From positions 1 through 32,575 of the IMG/VR virus record IMGVR_UViG_3300021400_000096: DNA of 32,575 bases, one strand, 5' to 3'. Position 1 is the first letter of the stretch. Each line of letters begins with the position of its first letter. The stretch comes from a virus. Below are positions 780 to 32,312 of this stretch, piece after piece. The position numbers and the translations under genes are program-made. The notes below the pieces were generated by a model. It saw only the letters and a list, made by a program, of their open reading frames with translations. It was not told the DNA's origin and did not search any database.

Positions 780-1874
780 TTATTTAATTTTTAATACTTG
801 ACCTGCATAGATGAAATTATAATAGTTGGCTCTGACTCCATGTCTTTGAGCATCACTATCAATTAAAGATTTATTCTTATTATAGATATCTTGCCATGTA
901 GTACCATATTTTTTAGCAATACCACTTAAAGTATCACCTCTTTGTACAGTATATGTAATTGAACTATTAGAAGCCCCTTTATTTGATGAATTAAGTATCT
1001 CATTTACTCTATTTTGAACTTCTGAATAGTTATATCCCTCTGCTTCTAATTTTGTCTTTCTTTCAGGATAATTACCATAATCTCCATTGATTACTTTTTT
1101 AGCAATTTCATCAAGTGATAGTTTTGTACTAGGTGCAGGTGCAGGTGTACTATTTCTACCTACTCCTTTATCAACTAGAGCCTGTACTGCATTATATCTA
1201 GAACCTAAAGCCTGTTTTCTTGCATCACCATTACCAAACTCACCTGTCCATACTCTTCTTGCAAGTTCTTCATCACTTACATTAGGAAATGGGTCTGTTG
1301 TAGGAGTGGATGGAGTATTTTGACTATACTCAACATAATTTAATTTACCATGATTAACCCATGTTCTAGTATTATAGCCACTTTTTTTACCTATATTACC
1401 TACTGCAGTTATTTGTACACCATCTTTCCAAATTGGAGTACACTCTACTGCTAATCCATTACCAATATAGATACCAACATGACCTGACATGTGTACTAAT
1501 TCTCCTACTTGAATATTAGAAAAATTAGTAGATACTCCTGTACAATATTTCATTATACCATCTGCACCTACATCAGGAACACCATTTGATGCATAAGATG
1601 CACCACCATAAATCTTACCTGTATTGCCAGACCATCCCCATAGAATACCTTTAATCAAGCAAACACAATCAAATCCAAATGTATCTGCACTTGCATTTCT
1701 TATTTTAGATGCTCTTGAACTTTGAGCATTATAAGAGTGATGATTGATATACCTTGTTTTATTGGTACTATTCATAGGTGCACCAAAACATCCCATTACA
1801 TATAATGTTTTATATTTTGTTGCAATATCTCTTGCAATATTAGCAAATTGAGTATTATTCATAACTTTACCCAT
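780..1874 (-). CDS. Endolysin: N-terminal Cys/His (NlpC/P60-like) hydrolase, two CW_7-like repeats, C-terminal LysM
   Basis: FDCVCLIKG...GHVGIYIGNG Cys-His motifs. Two repeats of type ARRVWTGEFGNGDARKQALGSRYNAVQALV. LysM signature YTVQRGDTLSGIAKKYG...IYAGQVLKI. GGAGG RBS present. Confidence 0.85.
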   Translation of the reverse strand: MGKVMNNTQFANIARDIATKYKTLYVMGCFGAPMNSTNKTRYINHHSYNAQSSRASKIRNASADTFGFDCVCLIKGILWGWSGNTGKIYGGASYASNGVPDVGADGIMKYCTGVSTNFSNIQVGELVHMSGHVGIYIGNGLAVECTPIWKDGVQITAVGNIGKKSGYNTRTWVNHGKLNYVEYSQNTPSTPTTDPFPNVSDEELARRVWTGEFGNGDARKQALGSRYNAVQALVDKGVGRNSTPAPAPSTKLSLDEIAKKVINGDYGNYPERKTKLEAEGYNYSEVQNRVNEILNSSNKGASNSSITYTVQRGDTLSGIAKKYGTTWQDIYNKNKSLIDSDAQRHGVRANYYNFIYAGQVLKIK

Positions 1875-1875
1875 A

Positions 1876-1998
1876 TTACTTTACCTCCTCTTCTTTTTCA
1901 TTGTAAACTTCTTCTGTATCTCCTACAGCCTCAACAAATTCTTCATCTGTTTCAGTTACTTCATCTGTAACTTCTTCTTTGATTTCTTTTTCTTCCAT
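1876..1998 (-). CDS. Possible 40-aa highly acidic micro-protein between holin and endolysin
   Basis: ATG follows a GGAGGAAAAAG RBS. Translation is MEEKEIKEEVTDEVTETDEEFVEAVGDTEEVYNEKEEEVK. The stop lies 1 nt before the endolysin ATG. Confidence 0.35.
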   Translation of the reverse strand: MEEKEIKEEVTDEVTETDEEFVEAVGDTEEVYNEKEEEVK

Positions 1999-2030
1999 CT
2001 TTCTTTTTCCTCCTTTACATTGGTTTATAT

Positions 2031-2061
2031 AAAAAAGAGAACATCAACTGTTCTCTTTTTT
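2031..2061 (-). terminator. Intrinsic terminator overlapping the holin stop codon
   Basis: 8-bp stem AGAGAACA/TGTTCTCT (2036..2043 and 2049..2056) with loop TCAAC. It is flanked by A6 and T5, so a U-run follows on the minus-strand RNA. Confidence 0.6.
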
Positions 2062-2244
2062 ATAGTTTGAACTTGATATCATTAATACTGCCCCTAGAAA
2101 AGTATCTACTGCAGTAATAGTACCGACAATTTCCTCACCATAAGGCAAATGCCATATACTTGCCAAAGCAAAGTATAAAGTACCTAGTGCAGGTAATACT
2201 ATTTGAGCAATATATTTTAAAATATCGTATGTTTTATTACTCAT
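2044..2244 (-). CDS. Holin (Dp-1-type, two TM segments)
   Basis: MSNKTYDILKYIAQIVLPALGTLYFALASIWHLPYGEEIVGTITAVDTFLGAVL resembles Dp-1 family holins. The ATG at 2244 follows GGAGGTG. The ORF-track start at 2292 is probably too long. Confidence 0.8.
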   Translation of the reverse strand: MSNKTYDILKYIAQIVLPALGTLYFALASIWHLPYGEEIVGTITAVDTFLGAVLMISSSNYKKENS

Positions 2245-2260
2245 AGACACACCTCCTATA

Positions 2261-2491
2261 CTATACTTTAAATACAAAAGCCAAAATGCCACCTATAACT
2301 GCTCCTAGAACCAATCTTACAATCCATTTTTGACTATCTTCTAGATTTTTAATTCTATTTTCATTATTTAGAGCCTTATTCATAGCATTTTCACTTGTTT
2401 CTTTTACACCCTTATAATCTTGCTCTTTTATTAATGTTTCTAAAACAGATAACCTTGATAGCACTTCTATTTGAAACTTATTATCTTCCAT
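2261..2491 (-). CDS. XhlA-like lysis-associated membrane protein
   Basis: 76 aa with an N-terminal coiled coil (LSRLSVLETLIKE...) and a C-terminal TM segment (WIVRLVLGAVIGGILAFVF). It sits directly upstream of the holin, as in PBSX-type cassettes. Confidence 0.65.
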   Translation of the reverse strand: MEDNKFQIEVLSRLSVLETLIKEQDYKGVKETSENAMNKALNNENRIKNLEDSQKWIVRLVLGAVIGGILAFVFKV

Positions 2492-2520
2492 ATCCCTAGC
2501 CCTTTCTGTCTTTAGTGTAC

Positions 2521-2548
2521 ATAAAAAGACAACATTTCTGTTGTCTTT
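2521..2548 (-). terminator. Hairpin plus U-run (late element A)
   Basis: 10-bp stem 2525..2534 / 2539..2548. The loop is GAAA on the minus-strand RNA, followed by TTTTTAT. Confidence 0.6.
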
Positions 2549-2559
2549 ACTACACTTAC

Positions 2560-2591
2560 ATTATAACATACTTCTTGTGTGAGTTTTGTGA
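2560..2591 (-). promoter_or_regulatory. Late promoter-like motif A: TCACA-N4-TCACA-N12-TATAAT
   Basis: On the minus strand, TCACAaaacTCACA lies at 2591..2578 and TATAAT at 2565..2560, with an extended TGt. The same architecture occurs at 19485..19516 and 22454..22485. Confidence 0.5.
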
Positions 2592-2595
2592 TAAT

Positions 2596-2697
2596 TTAGT
2601 TCTCTAGTGCTTCTTCAACTTGTGCTCTCCATCTTTCAGGAACATCTTCAAGAGTCATTTTGTGAAGTTTTATTTGCATAACATAGAACTTAACCAT
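2596..2697 (-). CDS. Small 33-aa XkdX/CD1375-like protein
   Basis: MVKFYVMQIKLHKMTLEDVPERWRAQVEEALEN. Its ATG overlaps the upstream stop (ATGGTTAA). The motif TLEDVPE+W/LR..V is typical of small proteins found after clostridial phage tail fibres. Confidence 0.45.
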   Translation of the reverse strand: MVKFYVMQIKLHKMTLEDVPERWRAQVEEALEN

Positions 2698-3001
2698 TAT
2701 AAATCACCTCTGCCATTTCAACTATAGCATCCTCTAGAGTATTTATTCTATCCTCTAAAGTGATTTTTTCATCTGATGGAGAATAATCTAAATATTTATA
2801 AGGGTCTTTCTTTATCATCTTCTCTGTTATTTCAGATGAATTAATTCTAAATTGATTAAAATCATGAACAAATAAAGTGTTTCCATCTTCATCTGTTACT
2901 TCTTCTACAAATCTGTAAATAAATACATCTGCCAAATCATTTTGTAATGGCATGTATCTATATTCAGGTTGTCTTTCACTAAATACTGCTCTTACTTGCA
3001 T
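2690..3001 (-). CDS. Hypothetical acidic protein (XkdW-like position), not Avd-like
   Basis: The ATG at 3001 lies 9 nt after AGGAGG, while the ORF-track start is 3022. It overlaps the RT 3' end by 23 nt. It is acidic with predicted beta content, unlike basic four-helix Avd proteins. Confidence 0.6.
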   Translation of the reverse strand: MQVRAVFSERQPEYRYMPLQNDLADVFIYRFVEEVTDEDGNTLFVHDFNQFRINSSEITEKMIKKDPYKYLDYSPSDEKITLEDRINTLEDAIVEMAEVIYNG

Positions 3002-4175
3002 TTGATATAACCTCCTTTGCATTTTTTAGAGTCTTTTTTAGTTTTACTTTCTTAAAGTATTTTTTACTCCATGAGTGCTTAAAATAGCCATGATATGATA
3101 CTACTTTATATGCATCCTCTAGAGTCAACTCAAAATTATTTCTTTTTGCTTTTAAATATACCTTATTTGCTCTATCAAATATTCTCTTTCTGATAGTAGT
3201 TTTATAAGTATATATCTTATATCCCATCATATCTATTGGTCTAGAGTCTAGTGGGAATAATTGATATGATGGTTTTAATGTTAAATCCATATTATTCAAG
3301 TATTCTTCAAGCATTTTAGATGCTTTTTTTACATTTTTCTTACTAGAACCTAATAATAATATGTCATCCATATAGAATAAAACATGATTTACAAGATTTA
3401 TTCTATTATCTCTTCTTGTTGTATATAACATTTCACTCACATAATGATATGGATATGATAAAAAGTAGTTAGCAAGGAATTGTGATAAATAAGAGCCTAT
3501 ACATAATCCCTCATCATAAGTATCTATTAATGTATAAAGCAAATAAAGCACTCTATCGTTCTTTATATCTCTTCTTAAATACTTTTTAATGATATCATGA
3601 TTAACACTAGGGTAAAACTTCTTAATATCACACTTAAAAACCCATTTACATTGTTTAGGGTTAGTTCTTATCCATGTTTCAATGGCATTTTTGCCAAATA
3701 TTTGACCTTTTTCTGATAAAGATGCACATTGATAATGCCCTATCTTTGCCAAAAACATCTTTTTACAAGCATTTACTGCAATATAGTCATAACATTGTTG
3801 CTTCATACTTGCAATTCCAATATTTCTCATCTTTTTTGCAGATGTATCATATCTTTCTTCATACATTATTGGAGATAGTTGTATATTATGATTAATTATC
3901 TCTAAATACATCTCTTTAGCAATATAATCAACCATTTTATGCAAGACAGTTCTATCTGTTCTTGCTATTTTTCTTATCCTTTTAGCCAAAATATGAGCAG
4001 GTGGGATATCACTTGTATATTGTGATACCCACTTCTGTACATATTCTGCAATGAAACAAGATGTATCATGTCTTGTCCATCTTTGCTTACCACTTGTAGT
4101 ACCATCCAAGCAATCATAAATGCTATATTTAACAAACTCATAAGATAAATCAAACTTACTTAAATATCTTTTCAT
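2979..4175 (-). CDS. DGR-type reverse transcriptase
   Basis: RT motifs are CDIKKFYPSV, GLCIGSYLSQFLANYFL (the DGR-typical xGxxxSQ), FYMDDILLLG (YMDD at 3363..3374) and LTLKPS...MGYKIY. It lies directly downstream of the TR. Confidence 0.9.
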   Translation of the reverse strand: MKRYLSKFDLSYEFVKYSIYDCLDGTTSGKQRWTRHDTSCFIAEYVQKWVSQYTSDIPPAHILAKRIRKIARTDRTVLHKMVDYIAKEMYLEIINHNIQLSPIMYEERYDTSAKKMRNIGIASMKQQCYDYIAVNACKKMFLAKIGHYQCASLSEKGQIFGKNAIETWIRTNPKQCKWVFKCDIKKFYPSVNHDIIKKYLRRDIKNDRVLYLLYTLIDTYDEGLCIGSYLSQFLANYFLSYPYHYVSEMLYTTRRDNRINLVNHVLFYMDDILLLGSSKKNVKKASKMLEEYLNNMDLTLKPSYQLFPLDSRPIDMMGYKIYTYKTTIRKRIFDRANKVYLKAKRNNFELTLEDAYKVVSYHGYFKHSWSKKYFKKVKLKKTLKNAKEVISNASKSSI

Positions 4176-4387
4176 TTGTTATCATCCTTTCAAGATATCA
4201 GGGACTTTCAGTTTATTTTACTAGCCCCACATTATATCTATATATCATATAATGTCTTTACTAACCCACATTGTGGCTTTCAAGTTGGTGTTACAATCTC
4301 AAAGTTTTAGCAATGCTAGAGTTAATTCAAAATTGAATTATGTCCTACCAAGGTACGGTGTCAAAAATCACTCCTTATATTTTTTAC
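4176..4387 (-). ncRNA. Non-coding TR-RT spacer (presumed 3' part of the DGR template RNA)
   Basis: 212 nt with no minus-strand ORF between TR and RT. It contains short palindromes, for example AATTCAAaaTTGAATT at 4324..4339. The role is inferred from other DGRs. Confidence 0.45.
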
Positions 4388-4497
4388 TTGAAATCCGAGC
4401 GAGGATATTCCAATTCGCATTAGTTACAGTATTATTAGCATTGAGGCAGGAAAGACCGGCATTAGTTCCATTATTCATATTACCGAGCCACAAGAAC
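4388..4497 (-). repeat. DGR template repeat (TR)
   Basis: Aligns with 4656..4765 at a constant offset of 268. It is non-coding here but, in VR frame, would read LFLWLGNMNNGTNAGLSCLNANNTVTNANWNILARIS with 10 AAT codons. Confidence 0.9.
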
Positions 4498-4528
4498 AAT
4501 CCTCTTTTTTTGACATCCTCAACTCAAC

Positions 4529-4537
4529 ATTATATCA
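4529..4537 (-). promoter_or_regulatory. Candidate extended -10 promoter (TGaTATAAT) for the TR-RT transcript
   Basis: The minus strand reads gTGATATAATg about 30 nt upstream of the TR. The -35 is weak (TTCAAT). Confidence 0.35.
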
Positions 4538-4601
4538 CTTTTTATTGATTTATTGAATATTTTGAAAGCATTTAATTTTGAATTTTTATTTTTTCTATAA
4601 T

Positions 4602-4621
4602 CAAGGGGAGAGCCCCTCTTG
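4602..4621 (-). promoter_or_regulatory. GC-rich hairpin immediately after the target-gene stop, about 35 nt 3' of VR
   Basis: CAAGGGGAGAGCCCCTCTTG has a GGGG/CCCC core (4605..4608 and 4613..4616) with flanking pairs. No U-run follows on either strand, so it is not a classic terminator. Confidence 0.5.
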
Positions 4622-4623
4622 TC

Positions 4624-6741
4624 CTATTCGGACAATTCACCCCCAACACCATTGATTGAAAGGCGAGCGAGGAGATACCAATACGCAAAAGCCACAGTAT
4701 TAATAGCATTGAGGCAGGAAAGACCGGCAAGAGTTCCATGATGCAGAGCACCGAGCCACAAGAACTCTCTTTGTCCTGATGTTCCACTATCTACATATAA
4801 ACCATCTGCATAGCCTACAGTAGAACCTGCACCACTTTGACCTGCTTTAGTAGGTACTGCAATTCCATCTTCTGTATCAAAACCATATTCAGTAATATAC
4901 TTCCATCCATTTAATGATGCAGGTTGAATTACTAAATCTGACTTTTTATAATTGTTCTTTGCAGTTGTTATATTTGTAGTAAGGATAGAAGCATTATTTG
5001 TATAATAAACCTCTCTATCTCCTGATGAGTTTACTATGTCCATAAATGCATTTCCTGCTACTTCATATCCACCTACACTCAATTCTATTCCATTGAATAC
5101 CATACCATGCTTACGATTAGTATTTGAGCCAACAGAACCTGTTCTACCTAGAATATCATCACTATATCCACTTCTTTCATGCATAGTTGATACCCAAGTG
5201 GTAGTTGTTGTAGTTATTGGTGCATGTTCTAGAATTAATGCAGTATGTCCACTATCTACTACTTCTTTGCCTATTACTTTTACATCATAGGCTAAATTAT
5301 GCATATATCCTTTACTTCTATCATTATCTGTTGCAGTACCTCTATCACCTACTGATACATAAGTATTAATATCAATATTATTTGCCTGTGCAGTAGTTAA
5401 TACTACTCTATTAACATTTGACTCTGCAACAGATACATTATATTGATAATTATTCTCTGTATTACCACCTAGAATTGATTGAGTATTCTTTGTTGCAAAT
5501 TGAAGATAGAAAGTAGTTAATATATGCATATAGTCAGACATTAATCCTGCACTATAATAAGAACCTTTTTGATGCATCAAACCAACACATCCACTATATG
5601 ATATACCATCTGAAAACTCTTCATCACCTGTTGGATTAGATAAGTAGTGAGCAGGTATTAATCCTTTAGAACTATATAAAGTTCCATCAATATCTCCTAC
5701 CACATATTTACCAATTGTGAACCAAGGACTAATAGTACCATCTTTATTTATAGCCTGTGGCACTACATTATAGCCTTTTCTAGGCATAAATGACCTAGAA
5801 ATGTATAAATATCCATCCTCTTCCCAAATCTTCTGATAATAGGTTCTAAATAAGCAGAAAACATCAACTTTTCCTGTATCTTTATAGTTTGGCATACCTT
5901 TAATTGATGTTACATGTCTTACACCATTGCTATCAACTACTGCATTAACATCATAACTTTGCCATGCTTCACTATAATTATTAACTTCCTCAACTGTATC
6001 TGTTGCAGGAGTTATTGATTTACCAATATTTGCATCTAATTTTTCACCTTGACATGTATTACTTGTATCCCATAAAGGAAATCTAACAGTATATACACCA
6101 TAATCAGGAGTCAAAGCAAAATGATTTTTGATACTCTCTTCAATTCTCTTTGAATTACCCCACTCACTAAAGGTAATACCTGTTGTTTCTTCGGCATCTT
6201 CCTCTATTTGTAAGGCATTTGCATTAAATCCATCTAATTTTGCATCATAATTGCTATTAAATGTATCTAATAGACTTGAAGCATTTGTATTAAACTCTTG
6301 TAATTTTGCTTCTGCATTTGCATTATAGGTAGGAATTAATCCCTCAACTCTATTAATTAAATCATCTAGTATTTGATAATTACTATCTGACTCAATATCA
6401 CTAGGGTCAATTTCTAATCCACTATCTACTACTTCAATAAGACATTTTTTACTATTTGTTAATTTACTATCTTCATCATATATTGATACACCAAAGAAAT
6501 ATCTACCTGTTACATCAAATATAGATGGGTCATCAATAGTTACTCTATTATTATTAATAGAAGTAACATAAACTTTGCCATTTGGCTTTAATAAATAAAA
6601 TAATTGTAGTGTACCTGTTTTACTAAATTGAAAAACAAGGTCAACTGAATTATAATCACCCTTAACTAGAGTGATAACATCTGATGTTAAACTATCAGAA
6701 CCCTCAAAATTAACTAAAACATTAAATATTTTATTTTCCAT
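4624..6741 (-). CDS. Tail fibre / receptor-binding protein, DGR target with C-terminal C-type-lectin-like variable tip
   Basis: 705 aa, last gene of the tail module. The C-terminus is ...EFLWLGALHHGTLAGLSCLNAINTVAFAYWYLLARLSINGVGGELSE. The W.G....AG....N pattern is typical of CLec-fold DGR variable regions. Confidence 0.85.
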   Translation of the reverse strand: MENKIFNVLVNFEGSDSLTSDVITLVKGDYNSVDLVFQFSKTGTLQLFYLLKPNGKVYVTSINNNRVTIDDPSIFDVTGRYFFGVSIYDEDSKLTNSKKCLIEVVDSGLEIDPSDIESDSNYQILDDLINRVEGLIPTYNANAEAKLQEFNTNASSLLDTFNSNYDAKLDGFNANALQIEEDAEETTGITFSEWGNSKRIEESIKNHFALTPDYGVYTVRFPLWDTSNTCQGEKLDANIGKSITPATDTVEEVNNYSEAWQSYDVNAVVDSNGVRHVTSIKGMPNYKDTGKVDVFCLFRTYYQKIWEEDGYLYISRSFMPRKGYNVVPQAINKDGTISPWFTIGKYVVGDIDGTLYSSKGLIPAHYLSNPTGDEEFSDGISYSGCVGLMHQKGSYYSAGLMSDYMHILTTFYLQFATKNTQSILGGNTENNYQYNVSVAESNVNRVVLTTAQANNIDINTYVSVGDRGTATDNDRSKGYMHNLAYDVKVIGKEVVDSGHTALILEHAPITTTTTTWVSTMHERSGYSDDILGRTGSVGSNTNRKHGMVFNGIELSVGGYEVAGNAFMDIVNSSGDREVYYTNNASILTTNITTAKNNYKKSDLVIQPASLNGWKYITEYGFDTEDGIAVPTKAGQSGAGSTVGYADGLYVDSGTSGQREFLWLGALHHGTLAGLSCLNAINTVAFAYWYLLARLSINGVGGELSE
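4656..4765 (-). repeat. DGR variable repeat (VR) in the last ~37 codons of the tail-fibre gene
   Basis: 17 mismatches to the TR. Sixteen are at plus-strand T in the TR, which is A in the coding sense (TR 4394, 4406, 4409, 4415, 4420, 4421, 4424, 4425, 4435, 4462, 4463, 4472, 4475, 4478, 4480, 4481). One is non-A (TR 4395 / VR 4663). Confidence 0.9.
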
Positions 6742-6758
6742 ATCTTTCTACCTCCTCT

Positions 6759-8285
6759 TTAACTTGTTCTAGTCCATAAATAAAATGTCTTATCTACTCC
6801 ACTAATAAACTTCCCTGATGTAGTTAATTCCCATGTAGTACCTGTTAATACAGTTTGTGGATTAACATTTGTTGTTGTCATCTTACAAGAACCTATTGGG
6901 AATAAATCAAAAAAGTTTATTCCATTTACAAACAAACTATTTGCAACAGATGGGAAACAATTAATACCTATAGATTGTAATAATATATCTATAAATAATA
7001 TTGGCATACCTTTTGGTACTACTAGATTGTAAGTAGTTGTACCAAACTTATCTTGTATAACTACTTGAAAATCCCAAGCAAACAACTTATCAATAACAAC
7101 AGTTGTTTCTACATTATCACTTAAAGATGTATAACTGTTATATGATGATGTTCCTGATTTTCTATATCTATATTTTATTGATTGGATTGCATTTTTGTTA
7201 TTTACTGATGAAATGGTAACTGCAACCTTTAACTTTGTGTCATCTTCATAGTTATTTACCCTTTTTGCAAGGATAGATGCAGTAGGTAGAACCCAACCTA
7301 ATATAGTTATTGTTTTTGATGCAGTTGTACTATTTCCTCTACTATCAACTGCTTTAATTGATACTGATAAGTTTTGACTAGAATTAACAGTACCATAATT
7401 AATTGTTGTTGGTGATGTTTTATTTTGAGTTGAACCATTAAATGTAACCTCATATCTGACAATTGATGCAGATTTCTTTGCAGTTGCACCTGTAAATGTT
7501 ACTTCTAAATTAGACCTATTTTGTACTATATGTTGATTATTACCTGTAATAGCAACAATTGAACTGTTTGTATCTTCATAAGAGATATTAGAACTTGCAA
7601 AAGTTGGATTTCCATTGACAATTGTCATGGTTTTATCTTGCCAAGACCAAAATTGTTCTGTTGTACCACTTATACAAGTTGCAATAACCTCTCTTACTGT
7701 CATAGAATTACCTGTACATTTTTGCCTTAATAATTCTCTTTCTGCACTTGTAAGATTAAATGTATAAGTGCCACTATTTCCAATATTATCTCTTTGAATA
7801 TTAACCCCACCAAACTCTAATCTAGCATTTAATCTAAATCCTCCGGGATTATTATATTTTATTGTAGGATTTTGTTCATCATTAAAATCTGTAGCACTTG
7901 TAACATTTGCTTGTCTAGGTATTGTTGATAAAGGACAACTTCCATTGTAAGTATTATTTCTATTGTAATAAACACTACCTTTTAATGTAAATCCAACATC
8001 TGATGCAGTACCATCATTATTATGGGTAACAGTTACTGTACCCTCTCTTGAACCTGTTGATGCAGGGAAATTATAAGAGTTCCAATTAGTAGTTTGAGTT
8101 CCATACTTTTCTTGTCCATGTACCCAAACACCCCAATTGTAGATAGTATAATAATTAACATTACCACCAATTGACTCTAATTTCCATCTAACAGTAGAGG
8201 TATTATTAGCAATATTTGTGCTTTCTTCCCAAACACTTAATTTTAAGTATCTTCCATCATAAGACCCTGTTTGAACACTTGCCAT
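6759..8285 (-). CDS. Tail-associated structural protein (baseplate / host-specificity, beta-rich)
   Basis: 508 aa, rich in S/T/N, located between Tal and the fibre. The N-terminus resembles siphovirus upper-baseplate or DUF859-like proteins, recalled from memory only. Confidence 0.6.
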   Translation of the reverse strand: MASVQTGSYDGRYLKLSVWEESTNIANNTSTVRWKLESIGGNVNYYTIYNWGVWVHGQEKYGTQTTNWNSYNFPASTGSREGTVTVTHNNDGTASDVGFTLKGSVYYNRNNTYNGSCPLSTIPRQANVTSATDFNDEQNPTIKYNNPGGFRLNARLEFGGVNIQRDNIGNSGTYTFNLTSAERELLRQKCTGNSMTVREVIATCISGTTEQFWSWQDKTMTIVNGNPTFASSNISYEDTNSSIVAITGNNQHIVQNRSNLEVTFTGATAKKSASIVRYEVTFNGSTQNKTSPTTINYGTVNSSQNLSVSIKAVDSRGNSTTASKTITILGWVLPTASILAKRVNNYEDDTKLKVAVTISSVNNKNAIQSIKYRYRKSGTSSYNSYTSLSDNVETTVVIDKLFAWDFQVVIQDKFGTTTYNLVVPKGMPILFIDILLQSIGINCFPSVANSLFVNGINFFDLFPIGSCKMTTTNVNPQTVLTGTTWELTTSGKFISGVDKTFYLWTRTS

Positions 8286-8295
8286 AAAACACCTC

Positions 8296-9963
8296 CTATA
8301 CTACTGCAACATAGCCAATACCATCATTGACTATATTTCCATTTTCTGTAATAGTTATTGGGATTTCTCTTAACTTATTAGCAATTGTTATTTCCTCTTC
8401 AACTACTGATTTTCTTTGATGAAACTCATCACCATCAACCCAATATGTTTTAACATTGTTTACATCATAACCTGCAAAACCTACTTCCGGATTAATCTTA
8501 ATATATGAATTATCATTATTAAAAAAAGTTAATCCTGTCTTATCTAAAAGACAAATTAACCTATTTGTTTCATCATATAATTCCATTGTTCCAGACTCAT
8601 TTAAGTTAGAACCTAATTTTAATGTTCCACCTTTAATCATATCTGCAACTAAATTAATAACATTAATCTGTTGCATGTCTAAAGTTCCATCAATAGTCCA
8701 TGCAGAATTAAATGTACCATTAATACCTGTTTGACTAAAACCTATTCCACCATTGCTAATCATGATACATTTTCTTGCAGTTTCTTTTGGTAAAGCATCA
8801 ACTACAAGTATTTTATCTCCATCATAAATACAATAAGACTCTCCCATTGATTGTCTTATTTTTTCTGTGGCTTCTGTTAATTCAGACTCTAATTTAGCAA
8901 TAATTTCATTGTTTTCTTTCTTTACTTCATTTGTAATTGATGATGTTACTGTTTGAATTAAGTTTTTTAATTTACTTTTAAAATTACCAAACTCTATCTT
9001 TGTATATTTATTTGCAATTGCATCATATTCTATAGCAATTACATTTGTAGTTAAATTGATTTTACATTTGGGATGATTAACATATATAATATCTCCTACA
9101 TCTGATACATTTTTTATATAAGCATCAACAGAATAATTAACTCTAGGTACTTTATTTACATTTAAGTATTCTTGAGCCTTGTTTCTTAAATCATTTATTA
9201 ATGCTTGATTATAAGCATTTTCATCTAATTCTCCATCAATAGTATAATCATCTTCAACTATATTACTTTGGTCAAAAGATATAACTTTTGATTTTGGAGT
9301 ATCATATAATTGTGTATCAAGTTCTATATAAGTTTCAGGTAACATAATACCATCTTTACCAACAGGTAATATTTTAGTTAAAACATTATCCCAAATCTCT
9401 TTTTTTACCATTTTTTTGATGTTTTTTTCATAAGATAATACAATTCCTCTATCTTCACCTATTTCATCTCTTATAGCCACATTAAAGCCATCTCTAACAA
9501 GGTGTCCTCCCCACCTTTCAACTACTGTTGCAAAGGCTTCTTCTAAAGAGTGTCTTATACATCTAAAAGAATTAACTCTAGTTACATCAGAAATAGTTGT
9601 AAATGGAGATGGATTATCTGTAGCCATATTAAGATGGTCTAAAGCATCATTACAATTCTTATCTACAACATAACTATCTCTAATAATATAATTTTTACTA
9701 TCAAAATACACATGATATGCTTTACAAGTTATAATATCATTTTCTACATTTGGATTAGTCAACCTAAATGGTTGATATCCCCATGGTGTTGATACCCTTA
9801 TAATCATATCTGCTTGATAATAATCAATAAAATCAATTTTATCCTTAATATCTAAATAATAATCTCCATTATCTTCTTTTCTAATTAATGCTTTTAATGG
9901 TTTTAATATTTTTAGACCATTATCATTAAAATCTTTTTCTGTAGATGGATATACACTAATCAT
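8296..9963 (-). CDS. Tail-associated lysin-type protein (Tal; phage minor structural protein N-terminal family)
   Basis: The start MISVYPSTEKDFNDNGLKILKPL... is typical of Tal or prophage tail endopeptidase N-termini. The ATG at 9963 overlaps the Dit stop (TAATG) after AGGTGG. Confidence 0.75.
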   Translation of the reverse strand: MISVYPSTEKDFNDNGLKILKPLKALIRKEDNGDYYLDIKDKIDFIDYYQADMIIRVSTPWGYQPFRLTNPNVENDIITCKAYHVYFDSKNYIIRDSYVVDKNCNDALDHLNMATDNPSPFTTISDVTRVNSFRCIRHSLEEAFATVVERWGGHLVRDGFNVAIRDEIGEDRGIVLSYEKNIKKMVKKEIWDNVLTKILPVGKDGIMLPETYIELDTQLYDTPKSKVISFDQSNIVEDDYTIDGELDENAYNQALINDLRNKAQEYLNVNKVPRVNYSVDAYIKNVSDVGDIIYVNHPKCKINLTTNVIAIEYDAIANKYTKIEFGNFKSKLKNLIQTVTSSITNEVKKENNEIIAKLESELTEATEKIRQSMGESYCIYDGDKILVVDALPKETARKCIMISNGGIGFSQTGINGTFNSAWTIDGTLDMQQINVINLVADMIKGGTLKLGSNLNESGTMELYDETNRLICLLDKTGLTFFNNDNSYIKINPEVGFAGYDVNNVKTYWVDGDEFHQRKSVVEEEITIANKLREIPITITENGNIVNDGIGYVAVV

Positions 9964-10661: not shown

Positions 10662-12961
10662 GTATAAATCACATCCTCTACTTTGTTTACAACTATTTCT
10701 CCTACCTTATCACCATCTAATTTTACATACATACCTGTTAAAGCATCTCTTACTGCTTCTGCAATAGACTCACTTTGAGATAGTACACCATTGTTAAATG
10801 AACTTGTAATATCATTATGTAATGTAGTATTGACTCCTACATCATAATCTGTTGGGATTGCATTTGCTATTTCTTTATTTACATCATCCATTTCATCTGA
10901 AAAACCTACACCAATACCTTTTGCAAGGTTTACACCTATTTCATCTCTGAATAAGGTTGATGGTGAGTTAATTCCAAATAATTTTTTGATAAACTTAAAT
11001 ACATTACCTACCCAACCTTTTATTTTGTCTTTAATCCAATTCAATGAATTACTAATACCATTCCATAACCCTTTAATCATATCAAGACCTACTGATGCCA
11101 TTTGAGTAACACCATTTGCTAGTCCTTTGACTAAAGCAGTTATTATTTGAGGTATTTTAGAAACTAATTGAGGTATTGCTTTTATTAATCCCTCTGCTAA
11201 TTTAATAATTAAAGTAATTCCCATTTGGATTATTTTAGGTAGATTATTTGTTATTGCAGTAATTAATTTATCAATTATTTCAGGCATTTTATCTATTAGT
11301 TTAGGTAAAGCCTCAATAATTCCATCTATCAATGCAAATATTATTTGAATACCTGCATCTATTATTTCATCTAGATGGTCTATTAATGTTTCAACAATTG
11401 TTATTACTGCATCTACAATTACAGGTATTAAATCAGGAATAGTTTGTACTAATCCATCTATTAATGATAATAATACTTGAATACCACACTCTATTATTTG
11501 AGGTAGATTTTGAACTAATGTTGTTACTAATTGCATAATAACCTGTGTTGCTACATTTGCAATCTGTGGCAAAATAGTTGTTAATCCACTTATTAAACTA
11601 GATATTATATTATTAACACTTTCAAGAACTCTAGGCATATTTGATGACATACCTTGAACTAAATTATCTATAGTATTCATACCTATTTCTAATAATTTAG
11701 GTAGTATTTCATCTGCAAAGGCAACTATCATATCACCAATACCACCTATTATTACTTCAATTCTAGGTATAATGTTATCTAAAGCAGTTATTAAACTTTC
11801 AACTAGATTATCAACTAATCCCTCAAAATTAGCATTGTCATCTGCAATACCAACTAGCATATTACTCCATGCAGATTTTAATGAAGCAACTGAACCTTGA
11901 ATTGTTGAACTTGCTTCTTTTGCAGTTGTTCCTGTTATTCCAAGTTCACCTTGTATAACATGAATAGCAGAATATACATCATTAAGATTTTTAATGTCAT
12001 ATTTAATTCCTGTTATTTTTTCTGCATCTGCTAAAAGTCTTTCCATTTCAGTTTTAGTTCCACCATAACCTAATTTCAAGTTATCTAACATTGTATAATT
12101 TTGTTTAGCAAAGCCTTGATAAGCATTTTGAATACTTTCCATTGAAGTACCCATTTTATTAGCATTATCTGCCATATCTGTTATTGCCATATCTGCTATC
12201 TCTGCAGATTTAGCAGTATCTCCATTTAAACTTTGTAATAAAGAGGCACTAAATGATGTTACTGTTTCCATATATTGGTTTGCAGATAAACCTGCAGTTT
12301 TATAAGCATTATTAGCATAATTTTGTACTATACCTGCACTATCTTTAAATAATGTTTCTACCCCACCTACTAATTGTTCATAATCTGCATAACTTTCTAA
12401 TGCTTGTTTCCCAACATCTATGAACATAGAGCCTAGTTTCTTCATACCATCAACAAGTTCAGATATACCTTTTTTAATAGCATCACTTATTAAATTAGCC
12501 TTAATTATATCTCCTAGAGATAAAACCTTTTTACCTGCTTTATCAGACTCATTACCTAATTCTTTAACTTCATCTGCATTATCTTCTGTGGCTTCACTTG
12601 ATTTTTTCATTGTTTCTTCGTTGTCTTTTACTTCTTTTTCCATAGAAACTAATTGAGCAGTTGCTTTATTTAATTCAGTTTGCCATTTTTGAGTAGTAGC
12701 AGAACTTTCTCCTGTTTCTGCTTTAGACTCTTCTAAAGCCTTTGTCAAAACTTCTACTTTTTCCTTTTGTGCTTCAATCTGTTTATTTAAAACTTGATTT
12801 CTTTCTGCTAGTCCTTGTACAGATTTATCATTTCTCCCATAAGTTGCAGTTACTATCTGCATCTCACTAGACATAACTTTTAAATTAGAAACAATTTCAC
12901 TTAATGCTTTTCTATATTCAGTTTCTCCTGAAAGTTTGACAGTACCACCAAATGAACTCAT
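10658..12961 (-). CDS. Tape measure protein
   Basis: 767 aa with an N-terminal coiled coil and a long helical periodic central region (LPQIIECGIQVLLSLIDGLVQTIPDLIP... repeats). It follows the frameshifted chaperone. Confidence 0.9.
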   Translation of the reverse strand: MSSFGGTVKLSGETEYRKALSEIVSNLKVMSSEMQIVTATYGRNDKSVQGLAERNQVLNKQIEAQKEKVEVLTKALEESKAETGESSATTQKWQTELNKATAQLVSMEKEVKDNEETMKKSSEATEDNADEVKELGNESDKAGKKVLSLGDIIKANLISDAIKKGISELVDGMKKLGSMFIDVGKQALESYADYEQLVGGVETLFKDSAGIVQNYANNAYKTAGLSANQYMETVTSFSASLLQSLNGDTAKSAEIADMAITDMADNANKMGTSMESIQNAYQGFAKQNYTMLDNLKLGYGGTKTEMERLLADAEKITGIKYDIKNLNDVYSAIHVIQGELGITGTTAKEASSTIQGSVASLKSAWSNMLVGIADDNANFEGLVDNLVESLITALDNIIPRIEVIIGGIGDMIVAFADEILPKLLEIGMNTIDNLVQGMSSNMPRVLESVNNIISSLISGLTTILPQIANVATQVIMQLVTTLVQNLPQIIECGIQVLLSLIDGLVQTIPDLIPVIVDAVITIVETLIDHLDEIIDAGIQIIFALIDGIIEALPKLIDKMPEIIDKLITAITNNLPKIIQMGITLIIKLAEGLIKAIPQLVSKIPQIITALVKGLANGVTQMASVGLDMIKGLWNGISNSLNWIKDKIKGWVGNVFKFIKKLFGINSPSTLFRDEIGVNLAKGIGVGFSDEMDDVNKEIANAIPTDYDVGVNTTLHNDITSSFNNGVLSQSESIAEAVRDALTGMYVKLDGDKVGEIVVNKVEDVIYT

Positions 12962-23590: not shown

Positions 23591-24220
23591 TTAACTTCCT
23601 AAATAAAAGTTTTTCCTTTTATCGTTTTTATCTGAATTATCCCAACAGATATATAATAATGTTACTCTTTCATTTGAGTGATTTAACATTTCTTTTAATC
23701 CTATGATATCTCCTGTCTTTTCATAGTATGACCTAGCAAAATACTTTCTCAATGAGTGGCATCCAACAGGATAGCCTACTTTTACCTCATCAGATAATTG
23801 TTTTATTACTTGCCATGCTCTTTGTCTAGTAATTGGCATATTAATACCTTTTCTACTCTTAAATAAATACTCTCCCTCAATTAAATCATTTCTATTAATA
23901 TAATCTGTAATATCTTTTGCTAATGATGGATGCAATTCAAATGATTGCTCCTTATTTGTTTTAAACTCTCTTGTATATACTGAACCATTTTTAAAATTAT
24001 CAACTTTTAATTGTAAAATATCTTCAATCCTAAAGGCAAGGTTCATACCTATAACTAATATCATGTAATTTCTATCCCATAGGTATTGTTGTTCTTTATC
24101 ACCATCATCCTCTGCTTGATTTCTTCTTTTTTTACAATTAATTATCATATTATCAATATCAGGTTTCTTAAATGGTTGTACTGTTTTTCTTCCGAACTTA
24201 ATTCTAAATGTTCTACTCAT
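23591..24220 (-). CDS. Short tyrosine recombinase (catalytic domain only)
   Basis: The R...HxxR...H...Y set is present: AFRIEDIL, CHSLRKYFA, LNHSN, VTLLYI. At 209 aa it has no room for an N-terminal core- or arm-binding domain. Confidence 0.7.
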   Translation of the reverse strand: MSRTFRIKFGRKTVQPFKKPDIDNMIINCKKRRNQAEDDGDKEQQYLWDRNYMILVIGMNLAFRIEDILQLKVDNFKNGSVYTREFKTNKEQSFELHPSLAKDITDYINRNDLIEGEYLFKSRKGINMPITRQRAWQVIKQLSDEVKVGYPVGCHSLRKYFARSYYEKTGDIIGLKEMLNHSNERVTLLYICWDNSDKNDKRKNFYLGS

Positions 24221-26349: not shown

Positions 26350-26556
26350 TTACTTTACCTCCTTTGGTTTTCTATAAGTAATACCATTGCCTTTTTTATC
26401 TCTAGAAACAAATGATATCTTGCATAACTTGTTTTTTGCTTTAAAATATCTTTGTTTTCCTTTATAATCTAATTTTTCAAACTCTTCATCTGATATATTA
26501 GTTATTTCTACTAATTCTTTTAATTTCTTATCTCTTTTAATAGCATCATTTATCAT
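26350..26556 (-). CDS. Hypothetical basic early protein
   Basis: 68 aa, lysine-rich. Confidence 0.55.
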   Translation of the reverse strand: MINDAIKRDKKLKELVEITNISDEEFEKLDYKGKQRYFKAKNKLCKISFVSRDKKGNGITYRKPKEVK

Positions 26557-26902
26557 TTTGCTTTACCTCCTCATTAATTCTTTGTAATTGTCTATCAATT
26601 TTTGATTTCATTACTTCTTTAACTTCTTCTGTTGATATATTGTAATTAAGTTGTATCTGTTTTAACATAACCATCACATCTGCTATTTCACCTTTAATTT
26701 CATCTGTTGATTTAATAGCCTTTCTATTATTCATTGATGCCATTATTGGCTCTAAAGCATTGCAGACAATATCAATAGGGTTTCTTCTTCTTTCTTCATA
26801 TTGAATAATTGCCTCATTTAATTCAAATATCTCACTCTGAAAATATTTAAGTTGTTTCTTGACTCCATAATGATTAATTATTCTTCTTAATTTTTCGTTC
26901 AT
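26546..26902 (-). CDS. MazG-like nucleotide pyrophosphohydrolase (tentative)
   Basis: HYGVKKQLKYFQSEIFELNEAI ... EIADVMVMLKQI resembles the paired E-x-x-E / E-x-x-D helices of small phage MazG proteins. Confidence 0.45.
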   Translation of the reverse strand: MNEKLRRIINHYGVKKQLKYFQSEIFELNEAIIQYEERRRNPIDIVCNALEPIMASMNNRKAIKSTDEIKGEIADVMVMLKQIQLNYNISTEEVKEVMKSKIDRQLQRINEEVKQNDK

Positions 26903-27297
26903 AATGCATAATTCCTTTCTTTTTTCATTTGCATAACTAAATCAATTTTGAACTTATCTTTTTTATTTCTATAATAAATACCTTTATAAGTATCTAAACT
27001 AGACATATAACCATCTAGAAAAAATTGTGAGGGTTCAATGCTCTCCATGATAATAATTCCTTTTCTGACACTATAAACAAGTTTTATTTGTCCATAAATG
27101 AACTTAAACTCTTGAGATGTCTTTAAATCTTTAGAATAAGTGCCATCTTCTATATCTATTAATAATTCTTTTTTGACTCTGAAAATAAGTTGTTTATATG
27201 CAATTGGACAGTATGTCTTTAAACTTCTTAATTTCTTTTTAAAGTCATTTTCATCAAGATATAAGAACTTAACTGAATTATCATCTTTGGCTTTCAT
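26899..27297 (-). CDS. Hypothetical early protein
   Basis: 132-aa ORF with overlapping start and stop codons. Confidence 0.55.
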   Translation of the reverse strand: MKAKDDNSVKFLYLDENDFKKKLRSLKTYCPIAYKQLIFRVKKELLIDIEDGTYSKDLKTSQEFKFIYGQIKLVYSVRKGIIIMESIEPSQFFLDGYMSSLDTYKGIYYRNKKDKFKIDLVMQMKKERNYAL

Positions 27298-31268: not shown

Positions 31269-32312
31269 ATGAAATTACCAAATAATTATGGTTCTATTGA
31301 GAAGTTATCAGGTAAGAGAAGAAAGCCATATATGGTAAGGAAAACTGTAGGATGGGATGAAAATGGTAAACAGATAAGAAAAATCATAGGATATTATGAA
31401 ACAAAGACTCTTGCCCTGCAAGAATTAGCCTTATTCAATGAGAAACCTTATGATATAGATGCAAGAAATATTACAGTAAAGGAATTACATCAGAAATGGC
31501 AAGATGAAAAATATCCTAAAATTGCATATAAGACTACCAAAGTATATGATATGTGTTGGAATTATTGTACAGATTTACAGGATATGGCTTTTGTTGATAT
31601 CAGATTAAATCATTTACAAGCCATTGTAGATGGTATGGGTAATAAATGGAGTGCTAAAAAGGCATTTAAAATATTATGGCATCAGATGTATGATTATGCT
31701 ATTAAAAATGATATTAATGTAAGAAAGTATTCAGAATACATTGATATAGGCAAAAAAACAACCAAATTAGAGCGAGTTCCTTTTGAAGAGGATGAAATAG
31801 ACAAGTTATGGAAAAATGTTGATAGGATGGACTTTATTGACACAATTTTAATACTAATCTATACAGGTATGAGAGTTGGTGAACTATTAGATATAAAAAT
31901 AGAAAATGTTCACATGGAGGAGAAATACATGATAGGTGGTTCTAAAACAGAGGCAGGTAAAAATAGAGTCATACCTTTTCATGAAAGAATTATACCTTTA
32001 GTTAAGAGATGGTATGATAAAGCAATTGAAGTTGGTAGTGAATATCTAATATTTAACCATGAATACGACCAAATGAAATATTGGAACTATTATCATGAGA
32101 AATGGGAAAAGATAATACAACAATTAGAGTTCAATGGTGAACATAAACCTCATGATACTAGACATACCTTTTCTACTCGTATTGATAGAACAGATGCTAA
32201 CAAATTATGTGTTAAAAGAATACTAGGACATGCAAGTACAGATATTACTGATAAAGTATATACACATAAAGATATAGAGGATTTATTAGAGGCAGTAAAT
32301 AAAGTAAAATAG
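31269..32312 (+). CDS. int: Tyrosine integrase
   Basis: 347 aa with an N-terminal SAM-like domain. Catalytic residues are R (TGMRVGELL), HDTRHTF, LGHAS and Y (KVYTH). An AAGGAGG RBS is present. Confidence 0.9.
   Translation: MKLPNNYGSIEKLSGKRRKPYMVRKTVGWDENGKQIRKIIGYYETKTLALQELALFNEKPYDIDARNITVKELHQKWQDEKYPKIAYKTTKVYDMCWNYCTDLQDMAFVDIRLNHLQAIVDGMGNKWSAKKAFKILWHQMYDYAIKNDINVRKYSEYIDIGKKTTKLERVPFEEDEIDKLWKNVDRMDFIDTILILIYTGMRVGELLDIKIENVHMEEKYMIGGSKTEAGKNRVIPFHERIIPLVKRWYDKAIEVGSEYLIFNHEYDQMKYWNYYHEKWEKIIQQLEFNGEHKPHDTRHTFSTRIDRTDANKLCVKRILGHASTDITDKVYTHKDIEDLLEAVNKVK

Follow-up and report, generated by a model that had tools for sequence, protein, structure and literature searches.

Can a diversity-generating retroelement (DGR) work without Avd, or does a locus that seems to lack it rely on a partner of another kind? 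Avd is a basic, all-helical, barrel-forming protein of ~110-130 amino acids whose gene adjoins the template repeat (TR). In the 32,575-nt stretch of viral DNA analysed here (the window), a first-pass annotation described a DGR with no recognisable Avd gene and offered three options, namely that the reverse transcriptase (RT) works without Avd, that a partner is encoded elsewhere, or that a host or phage protein substitutes for it. Our reading, which we consider likely, is that the element is an Avd-less DGR with the order target with its variable repeat (VR), TR and RT, located at the tail-module end of a low-GC gut Bacillota prophage.

All coordinates and gaps of the DGR locus, which lies on the minus strand, were verified in the window sequence. 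The RT (2979..4175, minus strand; 398 aa, pI 9.6) matched RVT_1 (2.6e-14) and PHROG 1423 (4.9e-68), and it was full length with intact catalytic motifs. The DGR-type motifs [LIV]GxxxSQ and YxDD were present as IGSYLSQ at residue 226 and YMDD at residue 268, respectively. The closest solved relative was the Bordetella phage bRT (8ub7, 2e-9), with residues 114-340 aligned to residues 71-284, and the two motifs together with the homology to bRT place the enzyme in the DGR clade of RTs. The target gene (4624..6741, minus strand) follows the DUF859 and Prophage_tail tail genes and encodes a 705-aa distal tail fibre or receptor-binding protein (PHROG 17147, 4.5e-81), the C-terminal region of which is homologous in all related loci. 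VR lies at the 3' end of this gene, with a 110-nt core (4656..4765, minus strand) that ends 29 nt before the target stop; weaker similarity to TR extends ~16 nt further. The core shares 85% identity with the 110-nt TR (4388..4497, minus strand), which contains 30 adenines and, in the VR frame, 10 AAT codons. Sixteen of the 17 mismatches fall at TR adenines, the concentration of differences by which a DGR is recognised. A GC-rich hairpin (AGGGG-CTCT-CCCCT; 4603..4618, minus strand), read from the sequence, starts 5 nt past the target stop codon, and a similar hairpin is kept after the target in an RT-less locus (L096). By analogy with the inverted repeat of BPP-1 (PMC5758913, PMC12875486), this hairpin is probably the target-recognition element, and a protein-coding target whose 3' end holds VR, with such a candidate downstream, is also the arrangement of a DGR. 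The locus is bounded by a lysis module (780..2491, minus strand) identified by Pfam, which comprises XhlA (2261..2491), a Dp-1 holin (2044..2292), a 40-aa acidic ORF (1876..1998) and a CW_7/LysM endolysin (780..1874). Promoter and terminator scans gave results no better than those for shuffled sequence, and a megablast search of the locus against phage genomes returned zero matches.

The first-pass annotation had given gaps of 126 nt between VR and TR and 212 nt between TR and RT, neither with a minus-strand ORF. We measured 126 nt from the target stop to the TR start and 212 nt from the TR end to the RT start, and the sole minus-strand ORF found there was a 43-aa reading of TR itself (4368..4499). 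Both gaps are too short for a basic helical Avd beside TR. We searched all 110 window ORFs of 40-260 aa on both strands with Pfam at E values up to 1, and the plausible small genes of the window with PHROGs and NCBIfam. None of the three libraries gave a match to Avd, S23-ribosomal or four-helix-bundle families in the window, and no window ORF searched matched the Avd profiles (PF05635 / TIGR02436). The reported absence of a recognisable Avd was borne out in this way: no small ORF, 2690..3001 included, had an Avd-like match in Pfam, PHROGs or NCBIfam, and ten related loci were likewise negative by Pfam. Further candidates for a hidden Avd were rejected. The 98-aa basic plus-strand ORF at 4252..4548, antisense to TR, is a by-product of TR composition and has no family match, and the antisense ORFs in relatives are by-products of their A-rich TRs, also without family matches. 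ORF 26546..26902 is helical, but it encodes a MazG-like NTP pyrophosphohydrolase.

A divergent Avd may escape Pfam, as Avd is very poorly conserved (Wu et al. 2018, PMC5758913), and the early region of the window contains several small basic ORFs of unknown function, such as 26899..27297 (132 aa, net charge +9). An Avd-like helper could in principle act in trans, whether its gene lies on the host chromosome, in another prophage or among window ORFs that have diverged too far for detection. However, this is unlikely in view of the negative searches of the window and the related loci, and whole genomes of other avd-less DGRs have also been searched with an Avd profile without any being found (Wu et al. 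2018, PMC5758913). Furthermore, the clade to which the window locus belongs spans hosts among Bacilli, Clostridia, Erysipelotrichaceae, Lachnospiraceae and Negativicutes, which makes a single shared host factor unlikely, and in Avd-containing DGRs the Avd gene adjoins TR, where there is too little room for it here.

The first-pass annotation implied that a DGR without Avd is a rarity, and this part did not hold. In the set of Wu et al. 2018 (PMC5758913), avd was present in 74% of DGRs and absent in 26%; the authors named the TR-RT arrangement without accessory genes Architecture A and also described an avd-less lineage. The comparison with architecture surveys that had been suggested therefore gave a match, to avd-less Architecture A. 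Avd is unmentioned in Roux et al. 2021. The absence of Avd is itself an already known architecture and is not new.

The layout of the window was found in ~85 related loci of gut Bacillota phages, and the target-TR-RT order was present in every one with enough upstream sequence. RT identity among these loci fell to about 34%, and adenine-specific TR/VR pairs were present in 55 of 57. A close relative of the window element was available from two samples (L001 and L002), which differed at 24 of 12,400 positions. Eighteen of the differences lay in VR, 17 of them at TR adenines, and the other six fell in the last 30 nt compared. The differences are thus almost confined to VR sites at TR adenines, and they show that this type of DGR is active in nature without Avd, adenine-specific diversification being observed in the close relative and not in the window itself. 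Among the three options offered at first, an RT that works without Avd is the one best supported by these VR differences.

The absence of Avd could also reflect loss of function in a decaying relic. Signs of decay do exist among the relatives: an internal deletion in one locus (L070) has removed TR and most of the RT, another (L057) has an RT split by a frameshift, and in a third (L034) the TR/VR mismatches are mostly off adenines, with only 2 of 12 at adenines. For the window element, however, decay is very improbable. Its RT is complete, all but one of the TR/VR differences are at adenines, its spacer hairpin is intact (51 bits), and the close relative shows VR-restricted, adenine-specific differences between samples.

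The TR-RT spacer (4176..4387, minus strand; 212 nt) holds no Avd-sized ORF and is presumed to form the 3' part of the DGR RNA; its length in relatives is comparable. Rfam matched no family in 2400..5000. A covariance model, however, revealed a conserved structured RNA element at 4185..4235 (minus strand; 51.3 bits in the window), in which a 5-bp stem, 4224..4228 paired with 4201..4205, encloses an ~18-nt loop with AGUAR and GAAA. In 50 loci, the model gave exactly one sense-strand match per locus, just 5' of the RT start, and it had no match elsewhere in 716 kb. The stem was paired in 96.5-97.5% of cells, with compensatory changes at all five pairs, and its score was reached by 0 of 500 shuffles. 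A covarying RNA hairpin immediately 5' of the RT start, occurring once per locus, is a new feature of these elements.

If the RT works without Avd, as we favour, retrohoming would most likely proceed in four steps. An RNA of TR and spacer would be made. The RT would then recognise this RNA directly without the Avd barrel, probably through the conserved spacer hairpin upstream of its own start codon. Copying of TR with errors at adenines would follow, and the resulting cDNA would replace VR, a step in which the matching 3' ends of the two repeats, together with the GC hairpin past the target stop, would guide it.

The gene at 2690..3001 (minus strand) starts 7 nt past an AAGGAGG ribosome-binding site and, as first described, overlaps the RT 3' end by 23 nt, the RT stop being at 2979. 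The 103-aa product is indeed acidic (pI 4.36) and beta-rich. AlphaFold2 predicted four beta strands followed by helices (pLDDT 83), that is, an N-terminal beta-sheet domain and a C-terminal helix, with low confidence in the C-terminal third. The model supports the view that this protein is not Avd-like, being acidic and beta-rich unlike the nucleic-acid-binding Avd. It matched no Pfam, PHROG or NCBIfam family. In a Foldseek search of the PDB, no match reached E <= 0.001 (best E 0.06), and no XkdW-named entry appeared among the 50 matches listed for this model with its low-confidence C-terminal third. A profile search of PDB sequences with the family found nothing relevant, and Foldseek against BFVD returned two uncharacterised gut siphovirus homologues only. 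An exhaustive sequence search collected 96 cluster representatives, and the protein is a member of an undescribed family that is encoded downstream of every checkable RT of the clade. Family members overlapped the RT 3' end in 55/55 RT-anchored loci, by 17-56 nt in those measured, and an intact RT lay immediately upstream in 31 of the 34 contexts found via the small protein. No RT of this clade was seen without the small-protein neighbour. Neither this family nor the spacer hairpin is described in the DGR literature searched, which included the main text of Wu et al. 2018 (PMC5758913).

Such tight linkage to the RT is also the pattern expected of a dedicated RT partner. The 103-aa protein might be a non-homologous replacement of Avd, a cofactor supplied at a fixed ratio through translational coupling and needed for cDNA synthesis or homing. 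The overlap with the RT stop is consistent with this, as it is kept in all RT-anchored loci despite its variable length and the low RT identity, and so is the frequency with which an RT accompanies the small gene. In addition, the small gene stays beside the RT in two loci where the next gene is not XkdX-like (L073, L075) and in two where TR-RT is set apart from the target by an RNase H gene (L068, L098), and another small acidic candidate accessory, CH1, occurs in an avd-less lineage (Wu et al. 2018, PMC5758913). Against these points, the pI of 4.4 makes Avd-like RNA binding unlikely, and the gene has a place of its own in the tail module. We consider the cofactor role rather improbable, and hold the same doubt about the broader reading that the family is an obligate non-Avd partner, either an RT cofactor or an adaptor between retroelement and fibre, of which the rare RT-less copies would be recent remnants.

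The next gene (2596..2697, minus strand) encodes a 33-aa XkdX-like protein of the CD1375 family (NCBIfam NF040910, 1.5e-9; PHROG 1382, 4.5e-10), and its start overlaps the small ORF stop (ATGGTTAA). The equivalents in relatives match PF09693 Phage_XkdX. The first-pass annotation had likened the small gene to XkdW by position, and its placement between the fibre and the XkdX-like/CD1375 gene agrees with this; the resemblance is positional only, because PF09636 gave no match in Pfam at E up to 0.1. In the non-DGR phages 2972, T12 and phiCT9441A, a gene of 113-128 aa occupies the same slot, and none of these showed homology to the small-protein family by hmmsearch or hhalign. The gene at 2690..3001 thus occupies the fibre-to-XkdX-like slot found in many Bacillota phages, here filled by a family specific to DGR-type fibres. 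Were it an extra DGR gene, the slot before XkdX would be left empty in these phages. Because the TR-RT cassette sits between the fibre gene and the small gene, the RT reading frame extends into the leader and start of the latter.

The small gene also persists without the retroelement. In L095 and L096/L097, a DGR-type target is followed by an intact small gene and an XkdX-like gene, and no RT was detectable in six frames. The flanks of L096 and L120 share 69-74% nucleotide identity, and the 1614 nt of TR-spacer-RT in L120 correspond to 78 nt in L096, located exactly between the target stop and the ribosome-binding site of the small gene. The indel takes out TR-RT and leaves the small gene as flank, as opposed to what a cofactor of the RT would suggest. 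The RT-less cases are possibly recent losses, since 20/20 viral-contig relatives of the two RT-less members carry an RT. L070 was rejected as an empty site, as its 1.2-kb deletion is internal and leaves an RT 3' remnant. Separately, DGR-less relatives were sought via the DUF859 tail protein, which gave one informative locus, L082; it is without the target, the RT, the small gene and the XkdX-like gene all together and does not discriminate between the readings. Family members were also found fused to CBM_5_12 (38.9 bits) and to Phage_XkdX (27.1 bits), and fusions to carbohydrate-binding modules and XkdX point to a role at the virion or cell surface rather than in cDNA synthesis. As the two genes overlap, a frameshift or gene-calling error could in principle account for the XkdX fusions. 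By its slot, its persistence without TR-RT and its fusions, the small gene looks like part of the fibre/tail module and not a hidden Avd substitute. Its product probably associates with the fibre, as an assembly or tip-accessory protein, and would oligomerise via the C-terminal helix.

To our knowledge, it has never been established how mutagenic retrohoming proceeds without Avd, and the DGR biochemistry and structures we know of all come from the Avd-dependent Bordetella phage system. The present clade offers a compact and evidently active system of three parts, the TR-spacer RNA, the RT and the target, with two experimental handles, the covarying spacer hairpin before the RT start and the always-adjacent small protein. 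Cultured phages belong to the clade (FP_Epona, LBR48 and Arawn), and experiments are therefore feasible. A minimal Avd-free DGR is also attractive for engineered targeted mutagenesis.

Comparison with the BPP-1 locus (mtd-avd-TR-brt) showed that the two RTs are homologous and that both systems combine adenine-specific mutagenesis with a receptor-binding protein gene that carries VR at its 3' end, a GC hairpin after VR and a structured spacer between TR and RT. However, Avd is missing from the window locus, and 113 residues precede the aligned RT core, compared to 70 in bRT. The spacer element differs as well, with a 5-bp stem and a large conserved loop instead of the ~9-bp tetraloop stem for which Avd binding has been reported (bioRxiv 10.1101/2023.10.23.563531).

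In PBSX-like and other Bacillota phages, the order fibre, small protein, XkdX and lysis genes defines an XkdW/XkdX slot that is identical in position to that of the 103-aa protein. The proteins are similar in size (~100-130 aa) and in having a C-terminal helix and an XkdX-like gene next, and some members of the small family are fused to the XkdX domain itself. They differ in that the small protein lacks a PF09636 match and has no significant counterpart among solved structures. Compared by description only, the CH1 protein of Bacteroides DGRs that lack avd (Wu et al. 2018, PMC5758913) is also small and acidic (pI 4.7 vs 4.3-4.4 here), carries no known motif and is confined to avd-less DGRs; it differs in its length of 160-169 aa and its restriction to Bacteroides Lineage 3a.

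Among cultured phages, Faecalibacterium FP_Epona, Lactobacillus LBR48 and Butyrivibrio Arawn carry an RT, a small ORF overlapping the RT end and then XkdX-like genes. The target lies directly upstream in FP_Epona and Arawn, and the LBR48 RT is at the start of a linear record. The Arawn small ORF matches the family profile at 3e-5, and LBR48 carries the spacer hairpin (36.6 bits). Their RTs, however, share only 27-35% identity with that of the window, and the small ORFs of FP_Epona and LBR48 have diverged too far for detection as members of the family.

The closest described arrangement is that of Architecture A1 and the avd-less Lineage 3 (Wu et al. 2018, PMC5758913), with target-VR, TR and RT on one strand in a phage tail fibre setting. 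The window target is adjacent to TR-RT as in Architecture A1, and no avd, HRDC or MSL gene was found by Pfam, with CH1 compared by description only. To this known arrangement, the window locus adds a 103-aa protein from a family that is always adjacent, as well as the conserved hairpin of the spacer.

In its sequence, the window (G+C content of 28.6%) looks like a nearly complete prophage, with an integrase and an S24 repressor at one end and lysis genes at the other. All parts of the diversity-generating retroelement (DGR) lie on the minus strand. The target open reading frame (ORF; 4624..6741, 705 aa) contains the variable repeat (VR) core (4656..4765, 110 nt), and a 126-nt gap separates it from the template repeat (TR; 4388..4497), which is followed by a 212-nt spacer and the reverse transcriptase gene (RT; 2979..4175, 398 aa). 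The small gene (2690..3001, 103 aa) overlaps the RT 3′ end by 23 nt, and its AAGGAGG ribosome-binding site and ATG fall within the final RT codons. On re-measurement, all coordinates and gap sizes in the first-pass annotation were correct. Sixteen of the 17 TR/VR mismatches are at TR adenines, the TR holds 10 AAT codons, and a GC hairpin (4603..4618) lies downstream of the target stop codon. The RT carries the motifs IGSYLSQ and YMDD, and its closest solved structure is Bordetella phage bRT (8ub7, E 2e-9). Elsewhere in the window, an extremely acidic 40-aa ORF (1876..1998, minus strand, net charge −15) lies between holin and endolysin, with a homologue kept in close relatives (e.g., 10999..11121 of the related locus L001). 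A short phage-integrase-family protein (23591..24220, minus strand, 209 aa) is encoded mid-phage, apart from the terminal integrase (31269..32312, plus strand), and a similar gene adjoins the portal gene in L064.

The first-pass annotation had recognized no gene for Avd, the four-helix-bundle accessory protein (PF05635) of canonical DGRs, and the profile searches bore this out. Among all 110 window ORFs of 40 to 260 aa on both strands, 2690..3001 included, Pfam (E up to 1) matched neither PF05635 nor any other Avd-like family; the window's plausible small genes, when scanned against PHROGs and NCBIfam, yielded no Avd, and none was found within up to 6 kb on each side of the RT in 10 diverse related loci. 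The sole helical candidate (26546..26902, minus strand) proved to be a MazG-like nucleoside triphosphate pyrophosphohydrolase (PHROG 2245, 3.4e-20). The 126- and 212-nt gaps held only the TR in the VR frame and one antisense ORF, which we rejected as a by-product of composition.

The RT search retrieved 45 viral and 12 genome loci, in which RT identity ranged between 34% and 87%. Their sources are Bacilli, Clostridia, Erysipelotrichaceae, and Lachnospiraceae of animal and human guts. In all related loci with enough upstream sequence, the target is followed by the TR, a spacer of ~115 to 340 nt, and the RT, and 55 of the 57 loci tested had adenine-specific TR/VR pairs. L001 and L002, which represent one phage in two samples and whose small protein is 80% identical to that of the window, showed 24 differences over 12,400 positions; 18 were in the VR, 17 of them at TR adenines, and the remaining 6 were confined to the final 30 nt compared. 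These VR differences indicate that the window's type of DGR is active in nature, and we regard the alternative of a decaying relic as very improbable. L034 is an exception among the loci, with only 2 of 12 TR/VR mismatches at TR adenines, and may contain a decayed or mis-paired repeat. In L057, an apparent frameshift breaks the RT (6001..7242) into ORFs of 217 and 221 aa, and the TR/VR differences are still at adenines only. Two separate groups of related loci carry an RNase H gene (PF00075, 174 to 183 aa) between the target gene and TR-RT (L068 2968..3492, L069 2048..2572, L098 1004..1555, L099 194..745), which may act as an additional accessory of the DGR in some elements without Avd.

The small protein belongs to a family absent from Pfam, PHROG, and NCBIfam. 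A word-indexed search found 2 clusters only; exhaustive searching with HMMER returned 96 cluster representatives, most of them ~100 aa long. The family is uniformly acidic (median pI 4.3), and AlphaFold2 with its alignment predicted a four-stranded beta domain (residues 1 to 70 at pLDDT >94) with a low-confidence C-terminal helix. Foldseek of the model against the PDB gave nothing significant (best E 0.06), and a profile search of PDB sequences gave no match. Since the protein is acidic, has a predicted beta fold, and lacks a family, fold, or PDB-sequence match, it is not Avd-like, in agreement with its initial description as acidic and beta-rich. Its proposed likeness to XkdW holds by position, between the fibre and a CD1375-family/XkdX-like gene (33-mer), but is not demonstrable in sequence or fold. 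In phages 2972, T12, and phiCT9441A, which have no DGR, the same slot is filled by genes of 113 to 128 aa with undetectable homology to the small-protein family.

Is the small protein instead a non-Avd cofactor of the RT? All 55 RT-anchored loci for which downstream sequence was available carry, overlapping the 3′ end of the RT, an ORF that matches the family profile (~104 to 129 aa; two loci with 238 aa), and an intact RT lies directly upstream in 31 of 34 contexts found via the small protein. Flanking tail and lysis genes are kept among near relatives only, whereas the C-terminal part of the target, the RT, and the small gene are constant. The same arrangement is seen in the cultured phages FP_Epona, LBR48, and Arawn. 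However, the small gene always occupies the slot between distal fibre and XkdX-like gene in which a small gene is found in Bacillota phages. Intact family members also directly follow a DGR-type target in L095 and L096/L097, where a six-frame profile search found no RT; all 20 viral-contig relatives of RT-less members carry an RT, so these cases may be recent losses. L096 and L120 have homologous flanks (69 to 74% nucleotide identity) around a clean indel, in which the 1,614-nt TR-spacer-RT of L120 (2374..3987) is replaced by 78 nt in L096 (3910..3987), which fill exactly the interval from the stop codon of the target to the ribosome-binding site of the small gene; thus, TR-RT is the unit gained or lost and the small gene is flank. 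L096 retains a GC hairpin downstream of the target stop codon. In L070, otherwise 98 to 99% identical to L071, a recent internal 1.2-kb deletion (equivalent to L071 2011..3243) removed the TR and all but a 92-aa remnant of the RT, and spared the small gene. Finally, family members in L103 to L108 (238-aa ORFs) and proteins P0058, P0011, and P0151 carry fused CBM_5_12 carbohydrate-binding modules (38.9 bits) or a fused XkdX-like domain (Phage_XkdX, 27.1 bits), both above Pfam cut-offs, which fits a virion or cell-surface role rather than an RT cofactor. L075 has a separate CBM_5_12 protein downstream of the small gene. These five results outweigh the case for an RT partner, which we now consider unlikely. 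A self-sufficient Avd-less DGR, with the small gene as a fibre-linked tail accessory of a previously unnamed family, is the reading we find reasonably probable.

A conserved hairpin common to the TR-RT spacers was a useful by-product. The window element (4185..4235, minus strand) has a 5-bp stem (arms 4224..4228 and 4201..4205) and a loop with near-invariant AGUAR and GAAA. In 24 hand-collected sequences, 97.5% of cells pair, with compensatory changes in 5 of 5 pairs; none of 500 shuffles matched the observed score, and slid controls reached at most one quarter of it. The seed was chosen by eye around the conserved loop, a bias partly offset by covariance-model hits outside it: the model gave exactly one hit in each of 50 loci, many of which lay outside the seed and one of which was phage LBR48, always on the sense strand immediately 5′ of the RT start, with no hits in RT-less loci or the rest of the 716 kb (both strands). 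Covariation was upheld on 46 distinct sequences, and Rfam has no such family. Close relatives have an RT called at 416 aa whose start lies within the hairpin (L001 8773, model hit 8768..8817); translation there probably begins at the ATG further downstream that corresponds to window 4175.

In Bordetella phage, the spacer RNA wraps bRT and binds Avd via a stem-loop (bioRxiv 10.1101/2023.10.23.563531). By analogy, we infer that the hairpin may serve as an RT recognition or priming element of the Avd-less lineage. Of the 372 DGRs surveyed by Wu et al. (2018, PMC5758913), 275 carried avd. The authors noted an avd-less lineage and gave the name Architecture A to a TR-RT core that lacks accessory genes; their profile search elsewhere in the genomes of such DGRs found no avd, and we judge an Avd-like helper supplied in trans to be quite improbable here. 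The initial reading was sound and the finding real, but the absence of Avd is not unusual, and the architecture was already known from that survey.
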